64,000 nucleotides of DNA from Escherichia phage P479. The stretch's first letter is position 1. The number at the start of each line of letters is the position of its first letter. Positions 7,081 through 44,103 of the stretch are shown here, piece by piece. The notes beneath the pieces were generated by a model. It saw nothing but the letters and a program-made list of their open reading frames with translations. It made no database searches and had not been told where the DNA came from. The stretch is from sequence record MW269952.1; one strand, written 5' to 3'. The translations under genes and the position numbers were made by a program.

Positions 7081-7105
7081 TTCAAAAGGTCTGCCTTCGG
7101 GTGGA

Positions 7106-7174
7106 CCTTTTTTCATTTAGGGGTTTACAACACCATAAAAAGGGTGTACTATTATCCCATCAACTACTGAGGAG
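7106..7174 (+). promoter_or_regulatory. Early promoter cassette (PeSL), near-identical copy at 38369-38438
   Basis: GTTTACA..GGGTGTACTATTATCCCATCAACTACTGAGGAG, preceded by UUCG hairpin 7087-7113. Confidence 0.65.
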
Positions 7175-7180
7175 AACACA

Positions 7181-31512: not shown

Positions 31513-34227
31513 ATGCAAGAATTTTATTTAACTATCGAACAAATCGGTGACAACCTACACGAACGATATATTGACAAGAATGGTCATGAACGTGTTCGTG
31601 AAATCCCTTATGCTCCATGCTTGTTTATGCACGCCCGTGAAGACCAGGCTGCAAAGTATACAGACATCTATAATAAAGGTTGTGTGAAAAAAGAATTCGA
31701 TTCCATGCGTGATGCATCCCAGTGGATGAAGCGAATGAATGACATGGGTCTCGAAGCTATGGGTATGGATGACTTTAAACTCGCATACTTGTCCGACCGT
31801 TACCCACACGAAATCAAATATGATTCAAGTAAAATCCGTGTTGCTAACTTCGATATCGAGGTGACATCTCCTGACGGGTTCCCTGAGCCGTCTGAAGCAC
31901 GTCACCCTATTGATGCCCTGACGCACTATGATTCGGTAGACGATAAATTCTATGTCTTTGACCTTTTGGGCTCACCATACGCCACTGTGGAGCAATGGTC
32001 TATTGATATTGCTGCTAAGCTGCAGGAAGACGGTGGTGATGAAGTCCCTGAAGAAATCCTGGAAAAAATTGTTTATATGGCTTTCGATTCAGAAGAAGAA
32101 ATGCTCCAGCAGTATTTGGTATTCTGGAACGAGAAAACTCCGGTTATGTTAACTGGTTGGAACATTGAGAAGTTTGATATTCCATATATCTACAACCGCC
32201 TTAAAAATGTATTTGGTGAAGCTACAGCAAAACGTCTGAGCCCACATCGTCGTACAAAAGTTAAGGTCATTAACAACGGCTTTGGTGAAGAACAAGAAAT
32301 CATTCAGATTCTGGGTATCTCTGTTCTGGATTATCTGGACCTGTATAAAAAGTTCAGCTTCACAAACCAACCGTCTTATTCGTTGGATTATGTTGCGGAA
32401 TCTGAACTGGGTGTTGGTAAACTCCCGTATGATGGCCCGATTTCTAAACTGCGCGAATCAAATCACCAGCGGTATATTTCTTATAACATCATCGACGTTT
32501 ATCGTGTTGTGCAGATTGACCGTAAGCGGCAGTTTATTAACCTGAGTCAGTCAATGGGTTATTATGCAAAGATGCAGATTCAGTCTGTATTCAGCCCAAT
32601 CAAAACTTGGGATGCGATTATCTTTAACAGCCTGAAGACTCAAAACAAAGTCATTCCGGAAACCAAATCGCATGTTCGTCAATCGTTCCCTGGTGCATTT
32701 GTTAAGGAACCGATTCCAAACGCGTACAAATATGTAATGAGCTGTGACTTAACATCTCTGTATCCGAGCATCATCCGACAGATTAACATCAGTCCAGAAA
32801 CGATTGCCGGTTCATTTGCTCCAGCCCAGATGTATGAATACATCGCAGGAACTGCTGACCGTCCATCTGATACATTTAGTTGTGCTCCAAATGGTATGAT
32901 GTATTTTAAAGATGTTGCGGGTATTATTCCGACAGAAGTCACCAAGGTGTTTAATCAGCGTAAAGAACACAAAGGCTATATGCTTGCGGCTCAACGTAAT
33001 GGTGAACTGATTAAGGAAGCTCTGCGTAATCCAGGAACTGGTACAACCGAGCCTGAAGTTGATTATCGTTATGACTTTGATGATAATATGAAAACAACCT
33101 TGCATGGTCTGAATCAAACAGTTCTGAATGGTATGTTGTACAAAGCGCAGATGGAAGAAGTTGCAGGCATGACCGCACAGATTAACCGTAAACTACTTAT
33201 CAACAGTTGTTATGGTGCTCTGGGTAATATCTGGTTCCGTTACTTTGACCTGCGAAATGCGACCGCGATTACATCTTTCGGACAACTTGCATTGCAGTGG
33301 ATTGAGCGTAAAGTTAACGAATACTTCGATAGTGTTTGTGGGACAAGCGGCGAAACTTATGTATTCTATGGCGATACTGACTCCATTTATATCCAGTGCG
33401 ATAACCTGATTAAAAAGGTTGGTGGCGAATCTAAATTCCGTGATACAAACCACCTGGTTGACTTCATGGACAAGTTTGCGAAAGACCGTCTGGAACCGGC
33501 AATCGATAAAGCTTTCCGTGAGCTGGCTGAATACATGAACAACAAACAGCACCTTATGTTTATGGACCGTGAAGCGATTGCATGTCCTCCGCTAGGTTCT
33601 AAAGGTGTGGGTGGATTCTGGACGGCGAAGAAGCGTTATGCGCTGAACGTGTACGATATGGAAGGCACACGATATGCTGTTCCGAAACTGAAAATCATGG
33701 GTCTGGAAACTCAAAAGTCGAGTACTCCAAAGGCATGTCAGAAAGCTCTGAAAGAATGTATCCGCCGTATGCTGCAAGAAGGTGAAGAATCTCTGCAGAC
33801 ATACTTCAAGGAATTCAATAAGGAATTTAATGAGCTTAACTACATGACCATCGCTGGTGTATCATCGGTTAACAACATCCAGAAATATAATGAAGGTGGT
33901 TTCCCTGGATTTAAGTGTCCGGCTCATATCAAAGGTGTGCTTGCATATATGCGTGCAACTAAAGGCCTGAAGACTGTTCCACAAATCATGGAAGGGGAAA
34001 AGGTGTATGTACTTCCTCTTAAAGTTGGCAACCCGTTTGGTGAAACCGTGATTGCATGGCCATCAGGGATTGAACTCCCGATTGAAATTCGTGACCAAGT
34101 CCTGCAGTGGATGGACTACAACACACTGTTCCAGAAGACTTTTGTTAAGCCATTAACAGGTTTCTCTGAAGCCGCAAAGGTTGATTACGAAAAGAAAGCA
34201 ACTCTTTTTGACATGTTTGACTTTTAA
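31513..34227 (+). CDS. 43: DNA polymerase gp43 (family B, with 3'-5' exonuclease)
   Basis: 904 aa; exo motifs FDIEV and YNIIDV, polymerase motifs SLYPSII, KILINSCYG and YGDTDS; no intron. Confidence 0.95.
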   Translation: MQEFYLTIEQIGDNLHERYIDKNGHERVREIPYAPCLFMHAREDQAAKYTDIYNKGCVKKEFDSMRDASQWMKRMNDMGLEAMGMDDFKLAYLSDRYPHEIKYDSSKIRVANFDIEVTSPDGFPEPSEARHPIDALTHYDSVDDKFYVFDLLGSPYATVEQWSIDIAAKLQEDGGDEVPEEILEKIVYMAFDSEEEMLQQYLVFWNEKTPVMLTGWNIEKFDIPYIYNRLKNVFGEATAKRLSPHRRTKVKVINNGFGEEQEIIQILGISVLDYLDLYKKFSFTNQPSYSLDYVAESELGVGKLPYDGPISKLRESNHQRYISYNIIDVYRVVQIDRKRQFINLSQSMGYYAKMQIQSVFSPIKTWDAIIFNSLKTQNKVIPETKSHVRQSFPGAFVKEPIPNAYKYVMSCDLTSLYPSIIRQINISPETIAGSFAPAQMYEYIAGTADRPSDTFSCAPNGMMYFKDVAGIIPTEVTKVFNQRKEHKGYMLAAQRNGELIKEALRNPGTGTTEPEVDYRYDFDDNMKTTLHGLNQTVLNGMLYKAQMEEVAGMTAQINRKLLINSCYGALGNIWFRYFDLRNATAITSFGQLALQWIERKVNEYFDSVCGTSGETYVFYGDTDSIYIQCDNLIKKVGGESKFRDTNHLVDFMDKFAKDRLEPAIDKAFRELAEYMNNKQHLMFMDREAIACPPLGSKGVGGFWTAKKRYALNVYDMEGTRYAVPKLKIMGLETQKSSTPKACQKALKECIRRMLQEGEESLQTYFKEFNKEFNELNYMTIAGVSSVNNIQKYNEGGFPGFKCPAHIKGVLAYMRATKGLKTVPQIMEGEKVYVLPLKVGNPFGETVIAWPSGIELPIEIRDQVLQWMDYNTLFQKTFVKPLTGFSEAAKVDYEKKATLFDMFDF

Positions 34228-34687: not shown

Positions 34688-35191
34688 ATGAAAAAGTTAG
34701 CTATCGCAGCTGTTATGCTGCTATCTGGTTGTGCTTACCAGGGCGATGTTGTTAATGCCAACGAGATTGGTAAAGCGCGAATTGCTGCAGACCGTCAGGT
34801 GCACAATGGTTCCTTTGATTTCAAAGGTGGTACTGGACTTATCTACAAACGCGACAACAATCAATGTGGAAACAACTGCGCGAAATATGCTCAACAAGAA
34901 ATTGAGTACAAACGCGAGCAAGCTGCGAAGCATGACGAAATCATTGCCAAGCTGGAAGCAGAAACCAAGCGACAAAATGACCTGGATACTGTTAACCAGA
35001 TTTCACAGGTCTGCATGTCATACATCAATATGCAGATAAACATCATGCGCGCAGAAGCTTATCAGGCAGCAGAGACGGGTTCTCCAAAAGCTAATGAGTA
35101 CCGCGATATGTATCAGCGTTCTGCTCAAAACCGTCTGAGCTATATTAATAAATGTGTAGCTAAAGAGAAAGCACGCCAAGGTATTAACTAA
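34688..35191 (+). CDS. Predicted lipoprotein
   Basis: 167 aa; signal peptide with lipobox LLSGC; occupies the slot where T4 has gene 42 and beta-gt. Confidence 0.5.
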   Translation: MKKLAIAAVMLLSGCAYQGDVVNANEIGKARIAADRQVHNGSFDFKGGTGLIYKRDNNQCGNNCAKYAQQEIEYKREQAAKHDEIIAKLEAETKRQNDLDTVNQISQVCMSYINMQINIMRAEAYQAAETGSPKANEYRDMYQRSAQNRLSYINKCVAKEKARQGIN

Positions 35192-35420: not shown

Positions 35421-36599
35421 ATGTCTATTGCAGATTTGAAATCCCGTTTGATTAAAGCTTCTACATCCAAAATGACCGCGACTCTTACCAAGTCCAAGTT
35501 TTTTAATGATAAAGATGTAGTTCGTACAAAAATCCCGATGCTGAACATTGCAATCAGCGGTGCACTAGATGGTGGTATGCAGTCAGGTTTGACTATTTTT
35601 GCTGGTCCGTCAAAACACTTTAAATCCAATATGGGTTTAACGATGGTCTCTGCATATATGAACAAATACCCCGATGCAATCTGTTTGTTCTATGATTCAG
35701 AATTTGGTATCACAGAAGCATATCTTCGTGCAATGAAAGTTGACCCGGAACGTGTTATCCACACGCCAATCCAGTCGGTTGAACAATTGAAAGTTGATAT
35801 GGTTAACCAGCTTGAAGCAATTGAGCGTGGTGAAAAAGTCATTATCTTTATTGACTCAATCGGTAACATGGCGTCGAAAAAAGAAACAGAAGATGCGATG
35901 AACGAAAAAGTTGTTGGCGATATGACTCGTGCTAAATCCCTGAAATCTCTGTTCCGTATTGTTACTCCATATTTTAGCATCAAGGATATTCCTTGTGTCG
36001 CGGTTAACCATACAATCGAGACGATTGAGATGTACAGTAAAACCGTTATGACCGGCGGTACAGGTGTTATGTATTCCGCGGACACCGTATTCATTATCGG
36101 TAAACGTCAGATTAAAGAAACTGGTAAAGAACTTGAAGGCTTCCAATTTGTTCTGAACGCCGAAAAATCCCGTATGGTCAAAGAGAAAAGTAAATTCTTC
36201 ATTGATGTAAAATTCGATGGGGGTATTGACCCGTATTCTGGCCTGCTTGATATGGCAATGGAAATCGGATTTGTGGTGAAACCAAAAGTTGGTTGGTATA
36301 ACCGTGAATATCTTGATGTTGAGACCGGTGAAATGGTCCGCGAAGAAAAATCATGGCGTGCAAAAGATACTAACTGCACCGAATTCTGGGGCCCGCTGTT
36401 CAAACACGAACCTTTCCGTGATGCAATCAAACGCCATTACCAACTGGGTGCAATCGATAGCAATGCTGTTGTTGATGCCGAAGTTGATGCGCTTATTGCT
36501 TCCAAGGTTGAAAAATACACTGCTCCTGAAGGTAAGACAAAACCGTCCGCTGCAGATATCGAAAACGATTTAGATATGATGGAAGACCTTGATGAATGA
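35421..36599 (+). CDS. uvsX: RecA-like recombinase UvsX
   Basis: 392 aa; DLKSRLIKASTSK..., Walker A GPSKHFKS, close match to T4 UvsX along its length. Confidence 0.95.
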   Translation: MSIADLKSRLIKASTSKMTATLTKSKFFNDKDVVRTKIPMLNIAISGALDGGMQSGLTIFAGPSKHFKSNMGLTMVSAYMNKYPDAICLFYDSEFGITEAYLRAMKVDPERVIHTPIQSVEQLKVDMVNQLEAIERGEKVIIFIDSIGNMASKKETEDAMNEKVVGDMTRAKSLKSLFRIVTPYFSIKDIPCVAVNHTIETIEMYSKTVMTGGTGVMYSADTVFIIGKRQIKETGKELEGFQFVLNAEKSRMVKEKSKFFIDVKFDGGIDPYSGLLDMAMEIGFVVKPKVGWYNREYLDVETGEMVREEKSWRAKDTNCTEFWGPLFKHEPFRDAIKRHYQLGAIDSNAVVDAEVDALIASKVEKYTAPEGKTKPSAADIENDLDMMEDLDE

Positions 36600-36933
36600 T
36601 ATCGATTTATCTGATTTAGATAATTTCGAGAAAGATGCGGAGGGAGCTAAGGCTCCTTCTGTACCTTACTACGAAAAAAGTTTGGAGATTATCCGGCAAT
36701 CCATGGGAACTGTGCGACAGGAAATTCTGTTATCACTCCCTGATGGGTCCAGTCACATTGTGTACGTAACCGGAATTAAAATTGAACCATCTGGAAAAGT
36801 TTCAGTTGATTTCGGCACCCCTTCTGAAGACCGCAAAGCGGAGCTTGCAGTGCATGTAGAAAAGTGTGTTACAATGCAAATACAAGATGAAATTGATAAG
36901 ATTAAAATGAAAAAGAGGTGGTGGAAGTGGTAG
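36589..36933 (+). CDS. 40: Hypothetical protein, gp40-like by position
   Basis: 114 aa between uvsX and gene 41 as in T4; sequence not verified. Confidence 0.4.
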   Translation: MMNDIDLSDLDNFEKDAEGAKAPSVPYYEKSLEIIRQSMGTVRQEILLSLPDGSSHIVYVTGIKIEPSGKVSVDFGTPSEDRKAELAVHVEKCVTMQIQDEIDKIKMKKRWWKW

Positions 36934-38357
36934 AAACTATTTTATCCCAGCTACTCTTTAACAAGGAATATTTTGTTAAAGTCTGGCCATATCTGAATAA
37001 CACATATTTTGAAAAGGGTCCTGCAAAGACCCTTTTTAATACGATTAACGAACACGTAAAAGAATATCAAGCGGTACCAACTAAGACTGCACTTGATATC
37101 GCGCTCGACAGTTCTGACCTTTCTGAAGTCGAATATGAAGGCACAAAGAAACTCTTAGGAGTCCTGGCCGATACACCAGAAGACCAGGAATGGTTGGTTA
37201 AAGAAACCGAGAAGTATGTACAGAAGTCTGCGATGTTCAATGCCACATCCAGGATTATCGAAATCCAGAGTAATGCCGAACTTCCGAAAGACAAACGTGA
37301 TAAACGAATCCCGGATATTGGTGCCATCCCTGACATCATGCGCGATGCATTGTCTATCTGTTTTGACTCTGCTCTGGGCCATGACTGGTTAAACGATTAC
37401 GAAGCTCGATTCCAGACTTATCTGAACAAATCGAAGAAGGTTCCGTTCCGTATTAACATCCTGAATAAAATCACAAAGGGTGGGGTTGAGTACGGTACAG
37501 AGAATGTTTTACTGGCCGGGACGAACGTCGGCAAATCCCTTGGACTTTGTTCGTTAGCCGCTGACTATCTTCAGACTGGTCATAATGTGCTTTATATAAG
37601 CATGGAAATGGCTGAAGAAGTATGTGCCAAACGTATTGATGCCAACTTGCTGGATGTATCTCTGGATGATATTGATGAAGGTCATGTGTCATGGGCAGAA
37701 TACAAAAGTAAGATGGAAAAATGGCGCGCAGCAGGGACTCTTGGGACTCTGAAGATAAAACAATATCCAACTGGTGGTGCTCATGCGGATACCTTCCGCG
37801 CATTATTGAATGAATACAAACTGAAGCAAGGGTTTGTGCCGGATGTGATTATTGTTGACTACCTGGCAATCTGTGCAAGCTCAAGACTGAAAACGTTTAC
37901 CGAAAACAGTTACGGTCTGATTAAGATGGTTGCAGAAGAACTTCGTGGTCTGGCGGTCGAGAAAAATGTGGTCCTGTGGACTGCAGCACAGACAACCAGG
38001 GGTGCGAACGTTGCAGCTGAGATTGATATGGCTGACATTGCAGAATCCTTTGGTATTGCTCACACGGCCGACTTTATGTTGGGTGTTGTTGAGACCGAAG
38101 AATTCGCTCAAATGGGACTACAGTTAATCAAACAACTTAAGTCTCGTTATGGCGATAAGAACTACTATAATAAATTCAAGATGGGTGTTAAGAAAGGTAA
38201 TCAGCGCTGGTACGAGGTTGATGATGATTCAGCTCCTAAACAAGGCTCTACGGTTAAAGAAGCCACTGGTGAGATGAATCGCCAGGCTGAAATGAATAGA
38301 CAAACCAGGGTCAACAGGAGCGACCTGGACGACCTTGCTGCTCAAATGAAATTCTAA
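36918..38357 (+). CDS. 41: Replicative DNA helicase gp41 (DnaB-like)
   Basis: 479 aa with GTG start; Walker A GTNVGKSLGLCSLAADYLQ.GHNVLYISMEMAEEVCAKRIDAN matches T4 gp41. Confidence 0.95.
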   Translation: MVEVVETILSQLLFNKEYFVKVWPYLNNTYFEKGPAKTLFNTINEHVKEYQAVPTKTALDIALDSSDLSEVEYEGTKKLLGVLADTPEDQEWLVKETEKYVQKSAMFNATSRIIEIQSNAELPKDKRDKRIPDIGAIPDIMRDALSICFDSALGHDWLNDYEARFQTYLNKSKKVPFRINILNKITKGGVEYGTENVLLAGTNVGKSLGLCSLAADYLQTGHNVLYISMEMAEEVCAKRIDANLLDVSLDDIDEGHVSWAEYKSKMEKWRAAGTLGTLKIKQYPTGGAHADTFRALLNEYKLKQGFVPDVIIVDYLAICASSRLKTFTENSYGLIKMVAEELRGLAVEKNVVLWTAAQTTRGANVAAEIDMADIAESFGIAHTADFMLGVVETEEFAQMGLQLIKQLKSRYGDKNYYNKFKMGVKKGNQRWYEVDDDSAPKQGSTVKEATGEMNRQAEMNRQTRVNRSDLDDLAAQMKF

Positions 38358-38376
38358 AGACCTTCGGGTCTTTTTC
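38357..38376 (+). terminator. Rho-independent terminator (UUCG tetraloop)
   Basis: AAGACC-TTCG-GGTCTT followed by TTTTT. Confidence 0.7.
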
Positions 38377-38438
38377 ATTTTAGAGGTTTACATCACCATA
38401 AAAAGGGTGTACTATTATCCCATCAACTACTGATGAGG
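38369..38438 (+). promoter_or_regulatory. Early promoter cassette (PeSL), copy of 7106-7174
   Basis: About 92 percent identical over roughly 68 bp to 7106-7174 (GTTTACA..GGGTGTACTATTATCCCATCAACTACTGATGAGG). Confidence 0.65.
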
Positions 38439-38446
38439 ATAATAAA

Positions 38447-38695
38447 ATGTTATTAGTTAATGTGCATTACCAGTTCAAATCTGAAGAAGCTCTCCAAAAG
38501 TATGCTGATATTTGTGAGCATAATAAAAGAACAGCTGCCATTGTTGGTCTGAAGCCTTTTAAAATTTTGGATTGCTCCTTGAACAGAGCAAGGCGCTGGT
38601 GTAGTGTTGCCTGTCATGCTTCAGTTGAAGGGAATGATTATTTTTTCATTACTTTCAATGCACAAGATTTTCATTTAATTAATGAATTAAAATAG
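38447..38695 (+). CDS. Hypothetical protein
   Basis: 82 aa; first ORF of the 41-61 island. Confidence 0.4.
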   Translation: MLLVNVHYQFKSEEALQKYADICEHNKRTAAIVGLKPFKILDCSLNRARRWCSVACHASVEGNDYFFITFNAQDFHLINELK

Positions 38696-38750
38696 TGTAC
38701 AAGCCCCTTGTCTTAGGACATAATGATTTCATATTGAGTTACACAATAAA
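38696..38750 (+). promoter_or_regulatory. T4-type early promoter
   Basis: TGTACA 38696-38701, 17-bp spacer, CATAAT 38719-38724. Confidence 0.55.
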
Positions 38751-38773
38751 CCAACTGTTAAAAGGAAAACCAT

Positions 38774-39076
38774 ATGTTTAATCAAACCGACATGAATCGT
38801 TACTATTTTGGACAATTCGCTCGCCGTGATGAAAACTGTGCTGCTCTTATCGCATCAGGCATTCAAACTGGTAAATTAATAAAGCTCAAAAGCGATGTTC
38901 AACCTTCATCTGTTCGCAGCTCTCTTCGTGAATATCTGCTTGCAGGCGGTGAAGTATATGTTATCGCTGAACCTTTTGTTAATGTGTGCGATGATTACAC
39001 AATTAGTGTGACTGTTATGCACCCAACTACTGGGAAAATTCGTTGTCTGACTATGCACAACTATGAGTTGGCATAA
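38774..39076 (+). CDS. Hypothetical protein
   Basis: 100 aa. Confidence 0.4.
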   Translation: MFNQTDMNRYYFGQFARRDENCAALIASGIQTGKLIKLKSDVQPSSVRSSLREYLLAGGEVYVIAEPFVNVCDDYTISVTVMHPTTGKIRCLTMHNYELA

Positions 39077-39082
39077 GTGAAC

Positions 39083-39108
39083 AAAGGGGCTTACAGCCCC
39101 TTTTTCTT
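39083..39108 (+). terminator. Rho-independent terminator
   Basis: AAAGGGGC-ttaca-GCCCCTTT followed by TTC. Confidence 0.65.
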
Positions 39109-39144
39109 ATGTTATAATGACCCTATCAACTACTGGAGAATAAA

Positions 39145-39462
39145 ATGAAAACCATTGATTGCAAGGCAGAATACAAAGTTTATTATCATGGGTCAAGCTC
39201 TAATGCTGGAATCCAAAATATGCTTTGTCCTCCTGATGCAACTGGTGTTCTGTCAGAAGTTGGGCGTAAGAAAAATTTAGGGCGTGTGTTTTTTACTGAA
39301 GATATTGGTTTGGCGCGTATCTATGCAGGAAGAGCAGCTCGCTCATATGGAGGAGAACCCCGTCTTTATCGTGTGATTGCACCTGTTGACGTGGTTTGTT
39401 TAAATGATACTAAAGGCGCAACAGTTTATCATGCTGCCTGGGCGTTTTGTGAGGAAATCTAA
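39145..39462 (+). CDS. Hypothetical protein with H-G-S motif (possible minimal NAD-utilising/ART-like fold)
   Basis: 105 aa; YYHGSSSNAGIQNML...GRVFFTEDIGLARIYAG is reminiscent of H-G-S ... aromatic signatures of H-Y-E ADP-ribosyltransferases or Tpt1; speculative. Confidence 0.35.
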   Translation: MKTIDCKAEYKVYYHGSSSNAGIQNMLCPPDATGVLSEVGRKKNLGRVFFTEDIGLARIYAGRAARSYGGEPRLYRVIAPVDVVCLNDTKGATVYHAAWAFCEEI

Positions 39463-39666
39463 ATGTATAAATTAGAGAACGTAGTGTTTATTGGTTGGTT
39501 TGAAAATGGCAATATGTTTACCAAAGAAACTGCGCTGGATGTCAGTGACAAAAATATGATTGAATGGGTTACAGTGCAGTATGCAGAAGTGAATAATGCG
39601 CTGGTTAAAGCCTTTGTTAATGATAATAAAGTTTTTGAATATGATTATCGTTCTAACGAAAAATAA
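39463..39666 (+). CDS. Hypothetical protein
   Basis: 67 aa. Confidence 0.35.
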   Translation: MYKLENVVFIGWFENGNMFTKETALDVSDKNMIEWVTVQYAEVNNALVKAFVNDNKVFEYDYRSNEK

Positions 39667-39726
39667 CAGTTTACATCAAAGGGATAATGCTGTATATTAT
39701 CCCTATCAACTACTGAGGAGATTGAA

Positions 39727-40020
39727 ATGAAAAAGTTATTAATCGCAGCAATTCTTACCGTAGCATCATGTGGTACAGCTCCAGTTACTGCTGGACTTGA
39801 TAAAGACCTTTGTGAGTGGTCTATGACCGCCGACCAGACTGATGTTGAACATCAGATTTATGCTGATATCATGAACATTACTAAACGTGACCGTCCAGAT
39901 ATGGTTAAAGAAGTATCTGACCAACTGGCTTCTGGTGACGTTATGCAGTATAACTATGTTCTGTATTGCGATGCTTCATTTGACAACAGCAAGATTGTTC
40001 AATGGGTTACAGGTGAATAA
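39727..40020 (+). CDS. Predicted lipoprotein
   Basis: 97 aa; signal peptide with lipobox TVASC; AGGAG Shine-Dalgarno. Confidence 0.5.
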   Translation: MKKLLIAAILTVASCGTAPVTAGLDKDLCEWSMTADQTDVEHQIYADIMNITKRDRPDMVKEVSDQLASGDVMQYNYVLYCDASFDNSKIVQWVTGE

Positions 40021-40021
40021 A

Positions 40022-40459
40022 ATGATTAACAGAACTTTAGTTATCAAAAAACTTCGTTGTAAAAATCAAAATGCACAAGCATACAGGATGTTTTGGAGCG
40101 ACGAAATTCAATACCTGGGTTATTTTCTTGTTGATAGTGATAATAGAATTACGTTTGCTCATAAACTTCTTAACAAAGAATTAAACCATTGGCAAGAACT
40201 TATTGCGGTCAAGTCTAAATTATTTTCGCGCAATACAATGCACCAATTGGTTTATTTTTTCGCTGACGGTATTCCCGACAAGGTTGAGTTTGACGGGTTT
40301 GAATTTAAAGACATCAACCCTGATAATGAATTGAATGGCAGTATTGTTAATATGGGTATCCCAGGTAAGTACATCAAAAACAGTCTTTTGAAACTTCTGG
40401 AAACCCCTGTTTATTCAGTTGATGACCAGATTTTTAATGCCTTCATGAAGCGAGATTAG
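40022..40459 (+). CDS. Hypothetical protein (C-terminal DDQIFNAFMKR tag)
   Basis: 146 aa from ATG 40022; 3' end carries a 36-bp direct repeat shared with the next gene. Confidence 0.4.
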   Translation: MINRTLVIKKLRCKNQNAQAYRMFWSDEIQYLGYFLVDSDNRITFAHKLLNKELNHWQELIAVKSKLFSRNTMHQLVYFFADGIPDKVEFDGFEFKDINPDNELNGSIVNMGIPGKYIKNSLLKLLETPVYSVDDQIFNAFMKRD

Positions 40460-40460
40460 T

Positions 40461-40817
40461 ATGAGTTATTATAATTTTCTGAATTTTGAACTGGCGAGCA
40501 ATAATGATGGTAATGCCCATTATGAATTCCGTGAGCCTCGGTTTAATCAGGCGATTGGTTATATTATCGTCAAAGATGATGTTATCATAAAGGCTCGCTC
40601 ATTCATGGTAATGAATGGACCTTATGAAGATACTCGCGGCTATCCATTTGATAAAAAGAATGTGCGCGATTGTGCAGCATGGATAACCGGAAACCCTGAA
40701 ATTGGGGTCATGATATCTACTGAAGCGAATGACATTCTGGAAGGGGTCGTCAAAGCTCAAGAACCGCCTACTGATATTGATGACCAGATTTTTAATGCCT
40801 TCATGAAGCGAGGTTGA
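40461..40817 (+). CDS. Hypothetical protein (C-terminal DDQIFNAFMKR tag)
   Basis: 118 aa; last 11 codons are a near-exact DNA repeat of the previous gene's 3' end. Confidence 0.4.
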   Translation: MSYYNFLNFELASNNDGNAHYEFREPRFNQAIGYIIVKDDVIIKARSFMVMNGPYEDTRGYPFDKKNVRDCAAWITGNPEIGVMISTEANDILEGVVKAQEPPTDIDDQIFNAFMKRG

Positions 40818-40818
40818 T

Positions 40819-41040
40819 ATGTATGTTTTGACCCAATTCTCTAAAGCAATATATAGTTACTCTTGCCAGTGGGAAGTCTTTATTGATACCCCTTCGCCTA
40901 AGTATGGTGTTTTTGGGCGAGTAACTACGCAAGCTTACGTTGCGCGACCGACTAAACGTCAGATTCGTAAACTTAAAAAGGCACATCGTCAATTGATTAA
41001 AAGAAGGGAACAATATGAGTGCAATGTGTACGGGCTCTAA
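40819..41040 (+). CDS. Hypothetical basic protein
   Basis: 73 aa. Confidence 0.35.
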   Translation: MYVLTQFSKAIYSYSCQWEVFIDTPSPKYGVFGRVTTQAYVARPTKRQIRKLKKAHRQLIKRREQYECNVYGL

Positions 41041-41206
41041 GATTTCTGTCTTCCAGATTTTTGAAGAATATGAAATCGTGTCGCAAGACCAAGAAGCAAT
41101 CCATGTTATCGCTGATGATGGGGTTACCTGGATTATTCCGTTGTATCATGAAGACACTTATGAAGTGACTGATGCAAATGGTGATAAAGCTATCTTCGTT
41201 GTATAA
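41015..41206 (+). CDS. Hypothetical acidic protein
   Basis: 63 aa. Confidence 0.35.
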   Translation: MSAMCTGSKISVFQIFEEYEIVSQDQEAIHVIADDGVTWIIPLYHEDTYEVTDANGDKAIFVV

Positions 41207-41209
41207 ATA
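41202..41209 (+). promoter_or_regulatory. T4 late promoter (TATAAATA)
   Basis: Exact TATAAATA 17 bp upstream of ATG 41226, with AAGGGGG Shine-Dalgarno between. Confidence 0.6.
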
Positions 41210-41225
41210 GCGGAAAGGGGGTGTT

Positions 41226-41393
41226 ATGAAAACATTCAAAGATTTTATCAACGAAAATATGGTTGCCGGTGATGCAGGTGGAAACCCAACTAATATCGCA
41301 ACAGGTACCACTTCCGGGGCAGTTGTCAATAAAGGCCCTGAACAAATCCCATCAAAAAAGCGTAAGAACAAAGACGATAAACCTACAGTATAA
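41226..41393 (+). CDS. Small internal-protein-like peptide with capsid-targeting sequence
   Basis: 55 aa, below ORF-track cutoff; N-terminus MKTFKDFINE parallels the IP CTS MKTYQEFI(A/T)E with I-x-E cleavage motif; basic C-terminus SKKRKNKDDK. Confidence 0.5.
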   Translation: MKTFKDFINENMVAGDAGGNPTNIATGTTSGAVVNKGPEQIPSKKRKNKDDKPTV

Positions 41394-41425
41394 TGGTCCT
41401 TCGGGGCCATTGAAATGAGGAAACT

Positions 41426-42454
41426 ATGTCATATATTGATAAAGAATTTGCAGTCAGAGCTTTATCGTATCAACCACGTTATAGAGAAGTCACCGGGAGC
41501 ACATTTAAAGCAAACTGTCGTTGCAAGGTTTGTGGGGACTCCCAGAAAGATTCACACAAGGCTCGATTCTGGGCGTATACTAATCCGGCTGATGGCGCGG
41601 TTTACGTGAAATGTTTTAACTGTGACTACTCCACGCATATAAGCAAATACATAAAAGAGTTTGAGCCTGATTTACACCGGGAATATATGGTTGAGAAGTA
41701 CAAGGAGAACGCCTTCGGGCGACAACGTAATGAAGTTGCAGAAGCTCCGAAAGAACCAGAAAAAACTCCGGTTATCGAACAGCTTGCTTTTTGTGAAAGA
41801 CTCGATACTTTACCAGAAGCACATCCGATAGTTAAGTATGTAAAAAGTCGATGTATTCCAAGCAATGTTTGGAACCGACTATGGTTTACAAACCAATGGC
41901 CTGCATTAGTTAACTCCGTTAATCCTGGGACGTATAAGAATGAAACGAATGAACCACGCTTGGTTATTCCTATCTTCAACGGCAAAAAAGAAATCGAATC
42001 TTTCCAAGGACGAGCTCTTCGCAAAGATGCACCACAAAAATATATCACAATCAAAGCTCACCCAGAAGCTTCCAAAGTCTATGGCGTAGACAAGATTGAT
42101 GAGCGTAAACGCGTATGGGTAATGGAAGGTCCGATTGATAGTTTGTTTATCCCTAACAGCATTGCGATAACTGGTGGAACATTGTCATTGGAAGCCGTTC
42201 CTTATCCAGAAACCAGAGTATGGGTAATGGACAACGAACCAAGACATCCGGATACGATTAAACGTATGAAGAAGCTCGTTGAAGCTGGCGAAGCTGTTAT
42301 GTTCTGGGACAATGCACCATGGCATACGAAAGACATAAATGAGATGGTTAAATCAGAAGGAGCAACCCCTGAACAAATCGAATCATATATGGCCGATAAC
42401 GTTGCTCAAGGATTGATGGCGAGAATGCGACTTTCGAAGTACGCAAAAGTTTAG
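41426..42454 (+). CDS. 61: DNA primase gp61
   Basis: 342 aa; N-terminal zinc ribbon (CRCKVCGDS...CFNCDYS) and TOPRIM region (VMEGPIDS); matches T4 gp61 length. Confidence 0.9.
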   Translation: MSYIDKEFAVRALSYQPRYREVTGSTFKANCRCKVCGDSQKDSHKARFWAYTNPADGAVYVKCFNCDYSTHISKYIKEFEPDLHREYMVEKYKENAFGRQRNEVAEAPKEPEKTPVIEQLAFCERLDTLPEAHPIVKYVKSRCIPSNVWNRLWFTNQWPALVNSVNPGTYKNETNEPRLVIPIFNGKKEIESFQGRALRKDAPQKYITIKAHPEASKVYGVDKIDERKRVWVMEGPIDSLFIPNSIAITGGTLSLEAVPYPETRVWVMDNEPRHPDTIKRMKKLVEAGEAVMFWDNAPWHTKDINEMVKSEGATPEQIESYMADNVAQGLMARMRLSKYAKV

Positions 42455-42651
42455 GAAGGGATTCCGGTAAAGTAACCGATGATGGAATGGATATGTTCCA
42501 TTGTGACCTGGAGTAAGTGTACCCCTTGTGTTGCAGCGATAGGCACAACCAGTAAGTTCCACAGGAAAACATCAAGAGCTAAAAAGCCCATGATGAGCTT
42601 CTTGTCTTTCTTACTGGTTAATTTCCAAATCTGATAGAATAATGTTCCCAT
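42451..42651 (-). CDS. Hypothetical small membrane protein (paralogue B)
   Basis: 66 aa; AGGTGGA Shine-Dalgarno 8 nt after paralogue A stop; shares LWN(F/L)(I/L)V.P(V/I)A...GV motif with A. Confidence 0.5.
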   Translation of the reverse strand: MGTLFYQIWKLTSKKDKKLIMGFLALDVFLWNLLVVPIAATQGVHLLQVTMEHIHSIIGYFTGIPS

Positions 42652-42659
42652 AGTTCCAC

Positions 42660-42857
42660 CTATATAAGGCCGATTAATGCCAGTGAAACATCTACAACTG
42701 ATTCGAGCGCGACGACTGGTAATATAACACCATGTGCCATTGCAACTGGAGCAACAATGAAGTTCCAGAGTAGAACTAAACAGAGTACCGAAAGGACCAG
42801 AATCGTTCGCTTACGACTGCCTTTGATGGCTTGAATTAGACTAGATAGTTTTAGCAT
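42660..42857 (-). CDS. Hypothetical small membrane protein (paralogue A)
   Basis: 65 aa; AAGGGGGA Shine-Dalgarno; late-promoter-like CATAAATA upstream on the minus strand; one transmembrane helix. Confidence 0.5.
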   Translation of the reverse strand: MLKLSSLIQAIKGSRKRTILVLSVLCLVLLWNFIVAPVAMAHGVILPVVALESVVDVSLALIGLI

Positions 42858-42941: not shown

Positions 42942-43457
42942 ATGGCTCATTTTAATGAATGTTCTCAACTGATTGCTGGTGTTGATAAAGCTCAGGGCGC
43001 TTATGATAATGCAATTTTTGAAGGCACTGACCCACTGCAAGTTATGCTTGATATGCAGAAATCATTGCAGGTTCGTCTGGCTAATGACCGTGATTATTGC
43101 TACCATCCAGATAAATTAGCGACTGCTGGTGATGTTGTTGCTTGGATGCGCGAACAAAAAGACTGCATTGACGATGAATTCCGTGAACTGATTACTTCAT
43201 TGGGTGAAATGTCTAAAGGTGAAAAAGATGCATCTGCTGTCTGGAAAAAATGGAAGGCTCGTTATACTGAAGCGCAAGCTAAACCAATTTCAGAAATGTC
43301 CCCAGAAGACCAGCTTGAAATTAAATTTGAATTAATTGATATCATGCATTTCGTATTCAATATGGCTATTGGTTTGAATATGTCTGCGGAAGAATTGTTC
43401 AAACTGTATTATCTGAAAAATGCCGAGAACTTTGCGAGACAGGACCGTGGCTATTAA
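42942..43457 (+). CDS. 56: dCTP pyrophosphatase gp56 (MazG-like)
   Basis: 171 aa from ATG 42942; MAHFNEC...DPLQVMLDMQ...YCYHPDKL.TAGDVV.WMREQKDCIDDEFREL.TSLGEMS.GEK.ASAVWKKWKARY nearly identical to T4 gp56. Confidence 0.9.
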   Translation: MAHFNECSQLIAGVDKAQGAYDNAIFEGTDPLQVMLDMQKSLQVRLANDRDYCYHPDKLATAGDVVAWMREQKDCIDDEFRELITSLGEMSKGEKDASAVWKKWKARYTEAQAKPISEMSPEDQLEIKFELIDIMHFVFNMAIGLNMSAEELFKLYYLKNAENFARQDRGY

Positions 43458-44103
43458 GGCAAGATTTCATAGGACGTATATAATTAAAGTTAAAACGCCG
43501 AAAGGCGTTTTTTGGTATGGTGGTAAACACGAAACCAATGTACTAGACCCATATAAAGACCGATATTCAGGCTCCGGAAAAATACTCTGGAACATATATA
43601 AAAAGTATGGAGTCAAATATCAAATTCGCTGGTTTGTTGGTCACCAGAATAGGGAAATGGCGTTTGAACATGAAAGATATCTAATATCATTATTAAATTC
43701 TAAACATGGTTCAAACTGTATTAATATTTTACCTGGTGGGCAGGGCGGAGGCGGATATGAATGGACTGATGAAATGAAGTTGGCCCAAACACTACGTTTA
43801 AATAAGCCCGAAACTAAAGCTAAAATGAAAAGCGCCCAATGTGTTGCTCAAAATCGCCCTGAACGCAAATCCAGACAATCAAAAGCAATGAGCGAGTTTT
43901 ATGCAAATGGTGGAAATAAAATCGTATCAGAAGCCACATCTAAAGCGCAAAGAACTGCAGCTCATTGGCATGAACCATTGAAAAGTGAAATCTATCAGAT
44001 TTGGCTTTCATTAGGTAAACCCGGTGGAGCTTCTGCTGTGGTTAAAGCACTTAAGGGAAAATACGAAACAACCCCCAGCGCACTTAAACTTTTAATATAT
44101 TAA
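43420..44103 (+). CDS. segF: GIY-YIG-like homing endonuclease (SegF-like by position)
   Basis: About 227 aa; YIIKV...VFWYGGKH, HERYLISLL and NILPGG resemble GIY-YIG elements; between gene 56 and soc as T4 segF; start uncertain, overlaps gene 56 end. Confidence 0.5.
   Translation: MPRTLRDRTVAIKARFHRTYIIKVKTPKGVFWYGGKHETNVLDPYKDRYSGSGKILWNIYKKYGVKYQIRWFVGHQNREMAFEHERYLISLLNSKHGSNCINILPGGQGGGGYEWTDEMKLAQTLRLNKPETKAKMKSAQCVAQNRPERKSRQSKAMSEFYANGGNKIVSEATSKAQRTAAHWHEPLKSEIYQIWLSLGKPGGASAVVKALKGKYETTPSALKLLIY

Follow-up and report, generated by a model that had tools for sequence, protein, structure and literature searches.

In bacteriophage T4, the genes for the replicative helicase (41) and the primase (61) flank a cluster of small genes that the T4 reference record gives in the transcription order 41, dmd, 61.4, sp, 61.2, 61.1, 61, with an interval of 1.66 kb. 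Here we analyze the corresponding interval in Escherichia phage P479 (record MW269952.1), a phage of the T-even type from the Gaprivervirus group, using a stretch of 64,000 nucleotides (referred to as the window; positions are those of the window). Dmd is an antitoxin directed against the RnlA and LsoA RNases, and Spackle (Sp), secreted to the periplasm in the case of T4, acts against superinfecting phage by inhibiting its tail lysozyme. DarT attacks single-stranded DNA at the replication fork. The anti-DarT factor AdfA (gp61.2) binds and neutralizes DarT1, as shown by experiment for the T4 and RB69 proteins only (PMC11825919).

Two further systems bear on this locus. Elements that combine an early promoter with a stem-loop (PeSL) have been described from hyperplastic regions, with promoters of the form TTTACW-N17-TAYWAT and stems built from a G-run and a C-run (PMC2839356, PMC4122927), and recombination at PeSL elements was shown experimentally in RB49/phi1 (PMC2839356). 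Iyer et al. 2022 reported a p0068-family ADP-ribosyltransferase (ART) paired with Dmd in phages of Escherichia, Shigella and Salmonella and proposed that the two form a toxin-antitoxin pair (PMC9503650).

Results

The P479 interval is probably an enlarged dmd-to-61.1 cluster

We find ten small open reading frames (ORFs), all on the + strand, between the helicase and primase genes of P479, and consider it probable that they make up the phage's enlarged version of the T-even dmd-to-61.1 early-gene cluster (ten genes instead of five), which is plastic at repeated cassettes. The local gene order is uvsX (35421-36599), gp40, gp41 helicase, the ten ORFs, gp61 primase and gp56. The left anchor, gp41 (36918..38357, +), is a 479-residue ORF annotated as gp41 in the phages SP18, VR7 and UPEC01 and shares 65% amino acid identity with T4 gp41; the right anchor, gp61 (41426..42454, +), has 342 residues and shares 60% identity with its T4 counterpart. 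Both anchors lie outside the island. The intergenic interval spans 38358-41425 (3068 bp), and the ORFs fill 38447-41393. An earlier note on this DNA had delimited the region as 38447-41400, that is, from the start codon of the first ORF to just beyond the last stop codon (41393), and its count of roughly ten small ORFs agrees with the ten that lie between the end of gp41 (38357) and the start of gp61 (41426). Over 36900-42500, Escherichia phages UPEC01 and CJ20 and Shigella phage SP18 are 96-98% identical to the window along the full length.

We numbered the ORFs in order and use T4 names where a homologue could be assigned. Dmd, Sp, 61.4 and 61.1 are each matched by Pfam or BLASTP, and homologues of dmd, sp and 61.1 lie on one strand and in this order between genes 41 and 61; only the 61.4-family gene, o8, departs from the T4 order. 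The dmd product (39463..39666, +; 67 residues) matches PF17587 (E 1.1e-20) and is 58% identical to T4 Dmd. The sp product (39727..40020, +; 97 residues) matches the Spackle family PF25676 from position 1 to 96 of the 96-position profile (E 1.4e-43; 147.8 bits against a cut-off of 27), shares 66% identity with T4 Sp, and has an N-terminal signal sequence whose ...ASC... region is common to both proteins. This is the ORF that the earlier note took for a lipoprotein; it is Spackle. The o8 product (40819..41040, +; 73 residues) belongs to the T4 gp61.4 family (DUF7279; PF23945, E 3.3e-20; 39% identity to T4 gp61.4, E 8e-14), and the gp61.1 homologue (41226..41393, +; 55 residues) is 83% identical to T4 gp61.1 over 42 residues (E 1e-25).

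The earlier note had assumed that genes 41 and 61 are adjacent in T4 and that about 3 kb was inserted between them in the present phage. Neither statement holds: five genes separate 41 and 61 in the T4 record (dmd, 61.4, sp, 61.2 and 61.1), and since T4 already holds a homologous five-gene cluster at this place, the island is an enlarged cluster rather than an insertion between neighbors. That a foreign island recently entered between genes adjacent in an ancestral T4 layout is therefore a reading we regard as extremely unlikely. It would account for the G+C content, which is 0.34-0.41 in the island compared with 0.43-0.45 in gp41 and gp61, and for an interval about twice as long as that of T4. 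Against it stand the five homologous T4 genes at the same position, the assignment of each island ORF to a phage-only PHROGs family, and the finding that the island contains no integrase, transposase or homing nuclease. Other genera of the Straboviridae likewise have small genes in the 41-61 interval.

Gene content and order vary among close relatives

About 900 Tevenvirinae genomes carry a gp61 of at least 60% identity. We compared the 41-61 interval of 20 genomes by clustering the proteins encoded there; the GenBank phage collection was used, as a search for gp61 loci in IMG/VR returned 6 loci (extracted loci are cited below by L numbers where coordinates refer to them). The 20 genomes display 17 different gene orders, and eight orders occur among the 11 Gaprivervirus-type genomes that share at least 99% gp41 identity with the window. 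The exact gene order of the window is found in SP18 and RZ only. The shortest interval, in Aeromonas phage Aes508, has 507 bp and two genes, the longest has 3509 bp, and an Acinetobacter phage carries more than 4.5 kb of small ORFs 5' of gene 61. A backbone of dmd, sp, one or two genes sharing a C-terminal tail (see below) and 61.1 is collinear across T-even genera. Genes that come and go include o1, o2, a Dmd-like paralogue (F9), a second dmd, the 61.4 family and o7. Two families occupy alternative slots: in T4, MN01 and YenP8 the 61.4 family is placed between dmd and sp, in the window it follows o7, and VR7 and VR25 have it in both places; the goF-like gene is the first after gp41 in the window, with a homologue between 61.4 and sp in RB6 (57% identity). 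Sequence identity is mosaic along the island, with the block from o3 to o6 87% identical to Dhakavirus MX01 and the flanking gp41 73% identical.

Several relatives illustrate the variation around dmd. Salmonella phage ABTNLsp5 (Dhakavirus; L016 3855-4253) has two adjacent dmd genes, the second of which shares 95% DNA identity with that of the window against a background of ~78%; the sequence comparison points to a recent transfer between Gaprivervirus and Dhakavirus. F9 (110-113 residues) is inserted after dmd in UPEC01 (L009 3067-3408), VR20 (L003 4903-5244) and EAWsc9 (L012 2361-2702) and includes a Dmd-like segment (HWYVQKTADNYNALVEAFVDD...), so that Dmd-family genes stand there in tandem; the window has one only. 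In VR26 (L005 5035-5601), a 188-residue protein with a signal peptide replaces dmd directly 3' of the ART-fold gene.

The earlier note had described a shuffled cassette region and had proposed an alignment of relatives as a check, under which an invariant set and order of ORFs across all relatives would speak for a conserved operon. With 17 orders in 20 genomes and alternative slots for the 61.4 and goF-like families, that pattern does not hold, and the description as a hotspot survives. A conserved operon with content and order fixed by function draws on the collinear backbone from T4 to Gaprivervirus, on the order shared with SP18 and RZ, and on the tight packing of six genes, as if translationally coupled. 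It does not explain eight architectures among 11 genomes of at least 99% gp41 identity, the alternative slots, or the mosaic identity. We thus judge it very unlikely, and for the island as a whole it is refuted; it could still hold for the sub-block from sp and o6 to 61.1.

Indel endpoints fall in repeated elements and at gene starts

Comparison of close relatives locates the endpoints of the gene-content changes. o1 is missing in VR20, VR25, VR26, VR7, MN01, EAWsc9 and YenP8, and the ends of its indel map from 38358/38382 to 38695/38714, i.e. from the hairpin and promoter after gp41 as far as the 38696 promoter. In MN01, one of the phages without o1, an intact aaaaGGGGtgtacaaGCCCC hairpin stands at the position of this promoter, followed by the same downstream sequence as in the window; in the window, the o1 3' end has taken the place of the left hairpin arm, so that the junction lies in the hairpin loop and the -35 hexamer. 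The larger indel of o1 and o2 runs from 38358 to 39083, between the hairpin after gp41 and a GGGG/CCCC hairpin, and in EAWsc9 and YenP8, which lack both genes, the GGGGcttacaGCCCC element found ahead of o3 in the window comes immediately after gp41. The hairpin at 38356-38373 is the starting point of both indels.

A different kind of repeat bounds o7. Adjacent o6 and o7 end in a 45-nt direct repeat, as the earlier note had seen from their shared 3' ends; copy 1 (40419..40463, +) extends from the o6 3' end through the o7 start codon, copy 2 (40777..40821, +) from the o7 3' end through the o8 start codon, and the copies are 93% identical. In VR26, MX01 and ABTNLsp5, which lack o7, the indel (40463 to 40777) ends in this repeat, and the alignment blocks share an overlap of 45 nt. 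For o8, the indel begins at the start codon of this gene and ends at that of o9 (40821 to 41012), and the insertions after dmd are joined at its last few codons. Within the surrounding 15 kb, the island holds two to three of five breakpoints against each of three relatives.

The early-promoter cassette recurs in a common form: GTTTACA or GTGTACA, 17 nt, TAnnAT, a leader (CCYATCAACTACTG) and GAGGA a few bases 5' of the ATG. With at most one mismatch allowed, the 11-mer leader ATCAACTACTG has 11 matches in the 64-kb window (8 exact), compared with 1.16 expected from shuffles. Nine matches lie on the + strand, all of them heading promoter-like cassettes, and three of these nine are inside the island; the motif is thus repeated and enriched in variable regions, as described for PeSL elements. 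Full cassettes precede o1 (TTTACA, 17 nt, TACTAT, then leader CCCATCAACTACTGATGAGGA; 38387..38446, +), o3, and sp (TTTACA, 17 nt, TATATT, then leader CCCTATCAACTACTGAGGAG; 39670..39726, +). The element ahead of sp is a promoter without a stem, and a homologous promoter-like spacer lies 5' of sp in T4. o2 has a weaker promoter without the leader (TGTACA, 17 nt, CATAAT; 38696..38724, +), which corresponds to the right half of a PeSL-type hairpin whose left GGGG arm has been replaced by the o1 3' end; fold prediction returns no stable fold for the window sequence at this element.

A PeSL-type element precedes o3 (39083..39118, +): an AAAGGGG-CTTACAG-CCCCTTT hairpin (-15 kcal/mol, z -3.46) with the -35 hexamer in its loop, followed by a U-run and TATAAT. 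The GGGG/CCCC hairpin (39083-39103) is the sole hairpin internal to the island, and an Rfam scan yielded two sub-threshold chance matches only, both on it. A second stem-loop adjoining a sigma-70-like early promoter is formed by the UUCG hairpin and promoter at 38356-38415. The promoter form and the G-run/C-run stems of the window agree with the published PeSL descriptions. Indel ends lie within such motifs for o1 and for o1 plus o2, and not for o7, o8 or the post-dmd insertions.

Two UUCG-loop hairpins mark the island borders. The first (38356..38373, +; -8.1 kcal/mol, z -2.07) lies directly 3' of the gp41 stop codon, has a U-run, is followed by UUUUUCAUUUU and resembles a terminator; the second (41391..41412, +; -11.8 kcal/mol, z -2.69) lies 13 nt 5' of the gp61 start and has no U-run. 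The earlier note, which spoke of several UUCG terminators, thus overstated their occurrence. The stem of the second hairpin is kept in the window and in loci L001, L003, L005 and L009, with UUCG, UCCG or UCUG loops and one U-G pair changed to U-A; T4 has no hairpin ahead of gene 61, where the gap is 11 nt. The hairpin may affect the stability or translation of the primase message. As a separate observation, the hairpin, promoter and leader after gp41 (38350-38446) are near-identical over ~75 nt to a cassette at 7085-7180 (7159), 31 kb upstream. In principle, such long-range repeats could mediate large deletions or exchanges.

The claim that almost every ORF has its own promoter can be kept only in part: the repeated cassette is real, but it precedes four of the ten genes, counting the weaker promoter of o2. 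The remaining six genes are separated by gaps of 0-1 nt, with one 26-nt overlap and one 19-nt gap, and given four cassettes and this tight packing, the island resembles four transcription units rather than ten.

The junctions of o1 and of o1 plus o2 fit the published PeSL model of recombination inside the element, even inside its loop, as far as can be judged from aligned genomes. An alternative is that illegitimate recombination or replication slippage acts at random sites and is filtered by selection to gene boundaries, the cassettes being purely regulatory. Selection against broken genes alone would leave breakpoints between genes, and no hairpin is found at the ends of the o8 indel or of the insertions at the dmd 3' end. 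However, three independent junctions lie inside repeats (the half-hairpin at 38696 compared with MN01, the joint of gp41 to the PeSL element of o3 in EAWsc9 and YenP8, and the 45-nt repeat at o7), and the experiments in RB49/phi1 cited above (PMC2839356) demonstrate recombination at such elements. We consider the random-site explanation unlikely.

o6 and o7 share a C-terminal tail with AdfA

The 45-nt repeat encodes the last 13 residues of o6 (40022..40459, +; 145 residues; phrog_8539) and o7 (40461..40817, +; 118 residues; phrog_4122), (S/D)(V/I)DDQIFNAFMKR(D/G). The o6 tail SVDDQIFNAFMKRD matches the C-terminus of T4 gp61.2 (AdfA), and BLASTP aligns the tail only. Three families of protein bodies carry this tail: AdfA (~208 residues), o7 (~118) and o6 (~145). 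The slot between sp and 61.1 holds only AdfA in T4, only o7 in OE5505, only o6 in MX01 and VR26, o6 plus o7 in the window, o7 plus AdfA in an IMG/VR contig, and none of the three in RB6 and Marfa. Scanning IMG/VR with the back-translated tail identified 16 loci, all in T4-like genomes and with the same three body families; no fourth was found. Across 26 genes located by position, five sites in the nine codons of DDQIFNAFM vary synonymously and none of the residues changes, which argues that the peptide, not the DNA alone, is under selection. A distant o6 relative (P0163) is identical to o6 in 27 of the 30 C-terminal residues (90%), and in 24 of 105 body residues (23%). The last 14 codons of T4 AdfA (L002) and of the o7-type gene in Tequatrovirus OE5505 (L032) are identical in DNA, and the bodies differ; this is consistent with a putative allele replacement bounded by the tail.

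We next asked how far the relationship extends into the bodies. The Pfam AdfA model (PF23813) scores o7 at 20.6 bits, below its cut-off of 27 and over profile positions 198-211 of 211, and does not match o6; neither protein is a full-length AdfA by this model, and we therefore did not file them as such. With tails removed, none of 3000 shuffles exceeded the best score of an o7 profile against AdfA bodies and six exceeded the median score, the alignment covering AdfA residues 29-74; for an o6 profile including P0163, one of 3000 shuffles scored higher. The tail-less alignments of o6 and o7 to AdfA always fall over residues about 15-55, and the signal of o6 is weaker than that of o7. We relied on shuffle tests for body homology, as hhalign returned low probabilities on shallow alignments that are too weak for it. 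Common ancestry of the o6, o7 and AdfA bodies is likely. In BFVD, o6 finds a fold match to a 118-residue protein, and no protein of AdfA length is among its matches; GNAT-like matches of o6 are weak, and we do not consider them credible (the AlphaFold2 model of o6 has a pLDDT of 62.8).

In the o6 model, the tail forms a detached, low-confidence helix. The C-terminal pattern [LIVM]F[DN]xF, which was chosen after seeing the sequences, is found in gp43, o6 and o7 only, among 463 ORFs of the window. The gp43 DNA polymerase of the window (31513-34227, +) ends in KKATLFDMFDF, the type of clamp-binding end seen in RB69, and a C-terminus of this type is known to bind the clamp (PMC2988020). One might speculate that the tail of AdfA, o6 and o7, (S/D)(V/I)DDQIFNAFM(K/N)R(G/D), is a portable docking tail that tethers variable bodies to one conserved partner, maybe a clamp at the replication fork (the gp45 sliding clamp of the phage or the beta clamp of the host), with its coding sequence doubling as a homology patch for allele swapping; we hold this idea to be rather improbable. 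Under it, AdfA, o6 and o7 may be fast-diverging families that compete for, or stack in, one slot.

An ART-fold protein is encoded directly upstream of dmd

o3 (39145..39462, +; 105 residues) is the protein that the earlier note had singled out for an H-G-S motif. It belongs to a conserved family, in which H15 and G16 are invariant, and has a minimal ADP-ribosyltransferase fold that had already been predicted in the literature, with Dmd as partner. The family is ~105 residues long and tightly conserved, and T4-like phages of many hosts contribute 121 clusters to it. It has the fold of the ADP-ribosyltransferase superfamily, the H-Y-[EDQ] clade being its candidate placement. Among 34 sequences, H15, G16 and Y60 are invariant and E103 is present in at least 90%, and H15, Y60 and E103 are candidates for the H...Y...E/D/Q catalytic positions. 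The dmd start codon of the window abuts the o3 stop codon with a 0-nt gap. dmd follows the ART gene in 14 of 15 cases, again with a 0-nt gap except in IMGVR_2974739009 (4-nt overlap). VR26 has the ART gene alone, and T4, OE5505 and RB6 have dmd alone; the pairing is thus common and not obligate.

Remaining genes and neighborhood

o1 (38447..38695, +; 82 residues) is a goF-like small protein and a variable cassette gene (phrog_2980 'goF mRNA metabolism modulator', E 3.6e-20). o2 (38774..39076, +; 100 residues; phrog_17014, E 2e-69) is likewise a variable cassette gene and is missing in EAWsc9, YenP8 and MX01. o9 (41015..41206, +; 63 residues; phrog_3249, E 2.5e-33) overlaps o8 by 26 nt and is found in every Gaprivervirus and Dhakavirus locus examined. 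The earlier note also listed a 'CTS peptide', for which no referent could be identified; the nearest candidate is o9, which starts MSAMCTGS. An NCBIfam search with the ten island ORFs gave no match, and a sequence search of solved structures returned nothing for o3 or o1. A frameshift in UPEC01 and stop codons in loci of Dhakavirus break an antisense ORF of 137 residues (40997-41410), while the genes on the sense strand persist; we therefore consider this ORF a shadow of o9 and 61.1.

Beyond the island, two tandem small ORFs with hydrophobic cores lie on the - strand directly downstream of gene 61 (42451-42651 and 42660-42857). Relatives have one or two copies at this site, annotated as 'dam.1' in RB6 and as 'holin family protein' in EAWsc9. 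RZ and YenP8 have a homing endonuclease directly after gene 61. A 227-residue ORF (43420-44103, +) overlaps the gp56 3' end, at the place of the GIY-YIG homing endonuclease segF in T4; VR20 and VR25 lack the segment 43458-44345 or carry other sequence instead. Just 5' of uvsX, a 167-residue ORF (34688-35191, +) with a lipobox-like start (MKKLAIAAVMLLSGC...) is annotated as 'hypothetical' in SP18.

Discussion

Our analysis suggests how an enlarged dmd-to-61.1 cluster may be expressed and remodeled. Host sigma-70 RNA polymerase would read the island early from the four cassettes, judging from their promoter-like sequences, in units that may comprise o1, o2, o3-dmd and sp-o6-o7-o8-o9-61.1, the last continuing into gene 61. 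The products would be small accessory proteins directed against the host or against rival phages. Gene content would change among close relatives by homologous recombination at short repeated sequences, as suggested by the indel endpoints: PeSL-type cassettes of hairpin and early promoter would serve as exchange sites for the gain and loss of o1 and of o1 plus o2, the 45-nt tail-coding repeat for o7, and gene-start junctions for o8 and the post-dmd insertions.

Several points weigh against this picture. Promoters and terminators are putative, being assigned from consensus matches and conservation. The absence of hairpins at the ends of the o8 indel and of the post-dmd insertions has been noted above, and since four of the ten genes have a promoter cassette, the exchange unit is not always 'promoter plus gene'. 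Because most T-even genera keep the backbone collinear, much of the apparent shuffling would amount to presence or absence of genes and not to reordering. With regard to function, o1 has a goF-like family label only, and o2, o9, 61.1 and the 61.4 family have no assigned function.

Earlier work has already described plastic promoter/hairpin regions as a phenomenon and most of the content (Dmd, Spackle, the ART-Dmd pair and the AdfA slot), and nearly identical genomes are publicly available. Our understanding of genome plasticity in T4-like phages is thus unchanged; the locus adds a well resolved example from Gaprivervirus and a testable idea on the tail of the AdfA family. The suggestion that the region carries anti-defense genes is borne out by Dmd, by Spackle (exclusion) and by the AdfA relatives o6 and o7: within 3 kb, the island gathers two proven counter-defense or exclusion genes (dmd and sp), one enzyme-like candidate (the ART-fold protein) and two candidate anti-DarT relatives. 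Natural variants differ by single cassettes, and the sequenced relatives therefore provide a ready-made deletion/insertion series for assigning functions.

Compared with the known systems, o6 and o7 share with AdfA (PF23813; PMC11825919) the slot between sp and 61.1 and the identical C-terminal peptide DDQIFNAFM, and the o7 body is weakly but non-randomly similar to AdfA residues about 29-74. They differ in length (145 and 118 residues compared with 208), and they have no clear counterpart of the AdfA region that contains the functionally critical residue 164. With the p0068-family ART/Dmd pair (PMC9503650), the window has in common a small ART-fold gene, putatively of the H-Y-E type, directly 5' of dmd, whereas in VR26 on the one hand, and in T4, OE5505 and RB6 on the other, each gene occurs without its partner.

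The island and the T4 dmd-61.1 cluster share position, strand, anchors, four homologous proteins (Dmd, Sp, 61.4 and 61.1) and a promoter-like spacer ahead of sp. The island is larger (ten genes in 3.07 kb compared with five in 1.66 kb), the additional genes being the goF-like gene, o2, the ART-fold protein and o9. Its 61.4 homologue follows the tail genes, whereas it precedes sp in T4, and the single 208-residue gp61.2 of T4 corresponds to two shorter genes that have kept the C-terminal tail. From the PeSL hyperplastic regions (Arbiol et al. 2010, PMC2839356; Comeau et al. 2014, PMC4122927), the window differs in that the -35 hexamer sits in the hairpin loop, that the repeat includes a conserved 5' leader (CCYATCAACTACTG...GAGGA), and that some exchanges map to a coding repeat or to gene starts. 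It resembles them in its composite elements of hairpin and early promoter, which are repeated genome-wide and concentrated beside variable small genes, and in the indels of close relatives, which end inside these elements and even inside the hairpin loop.

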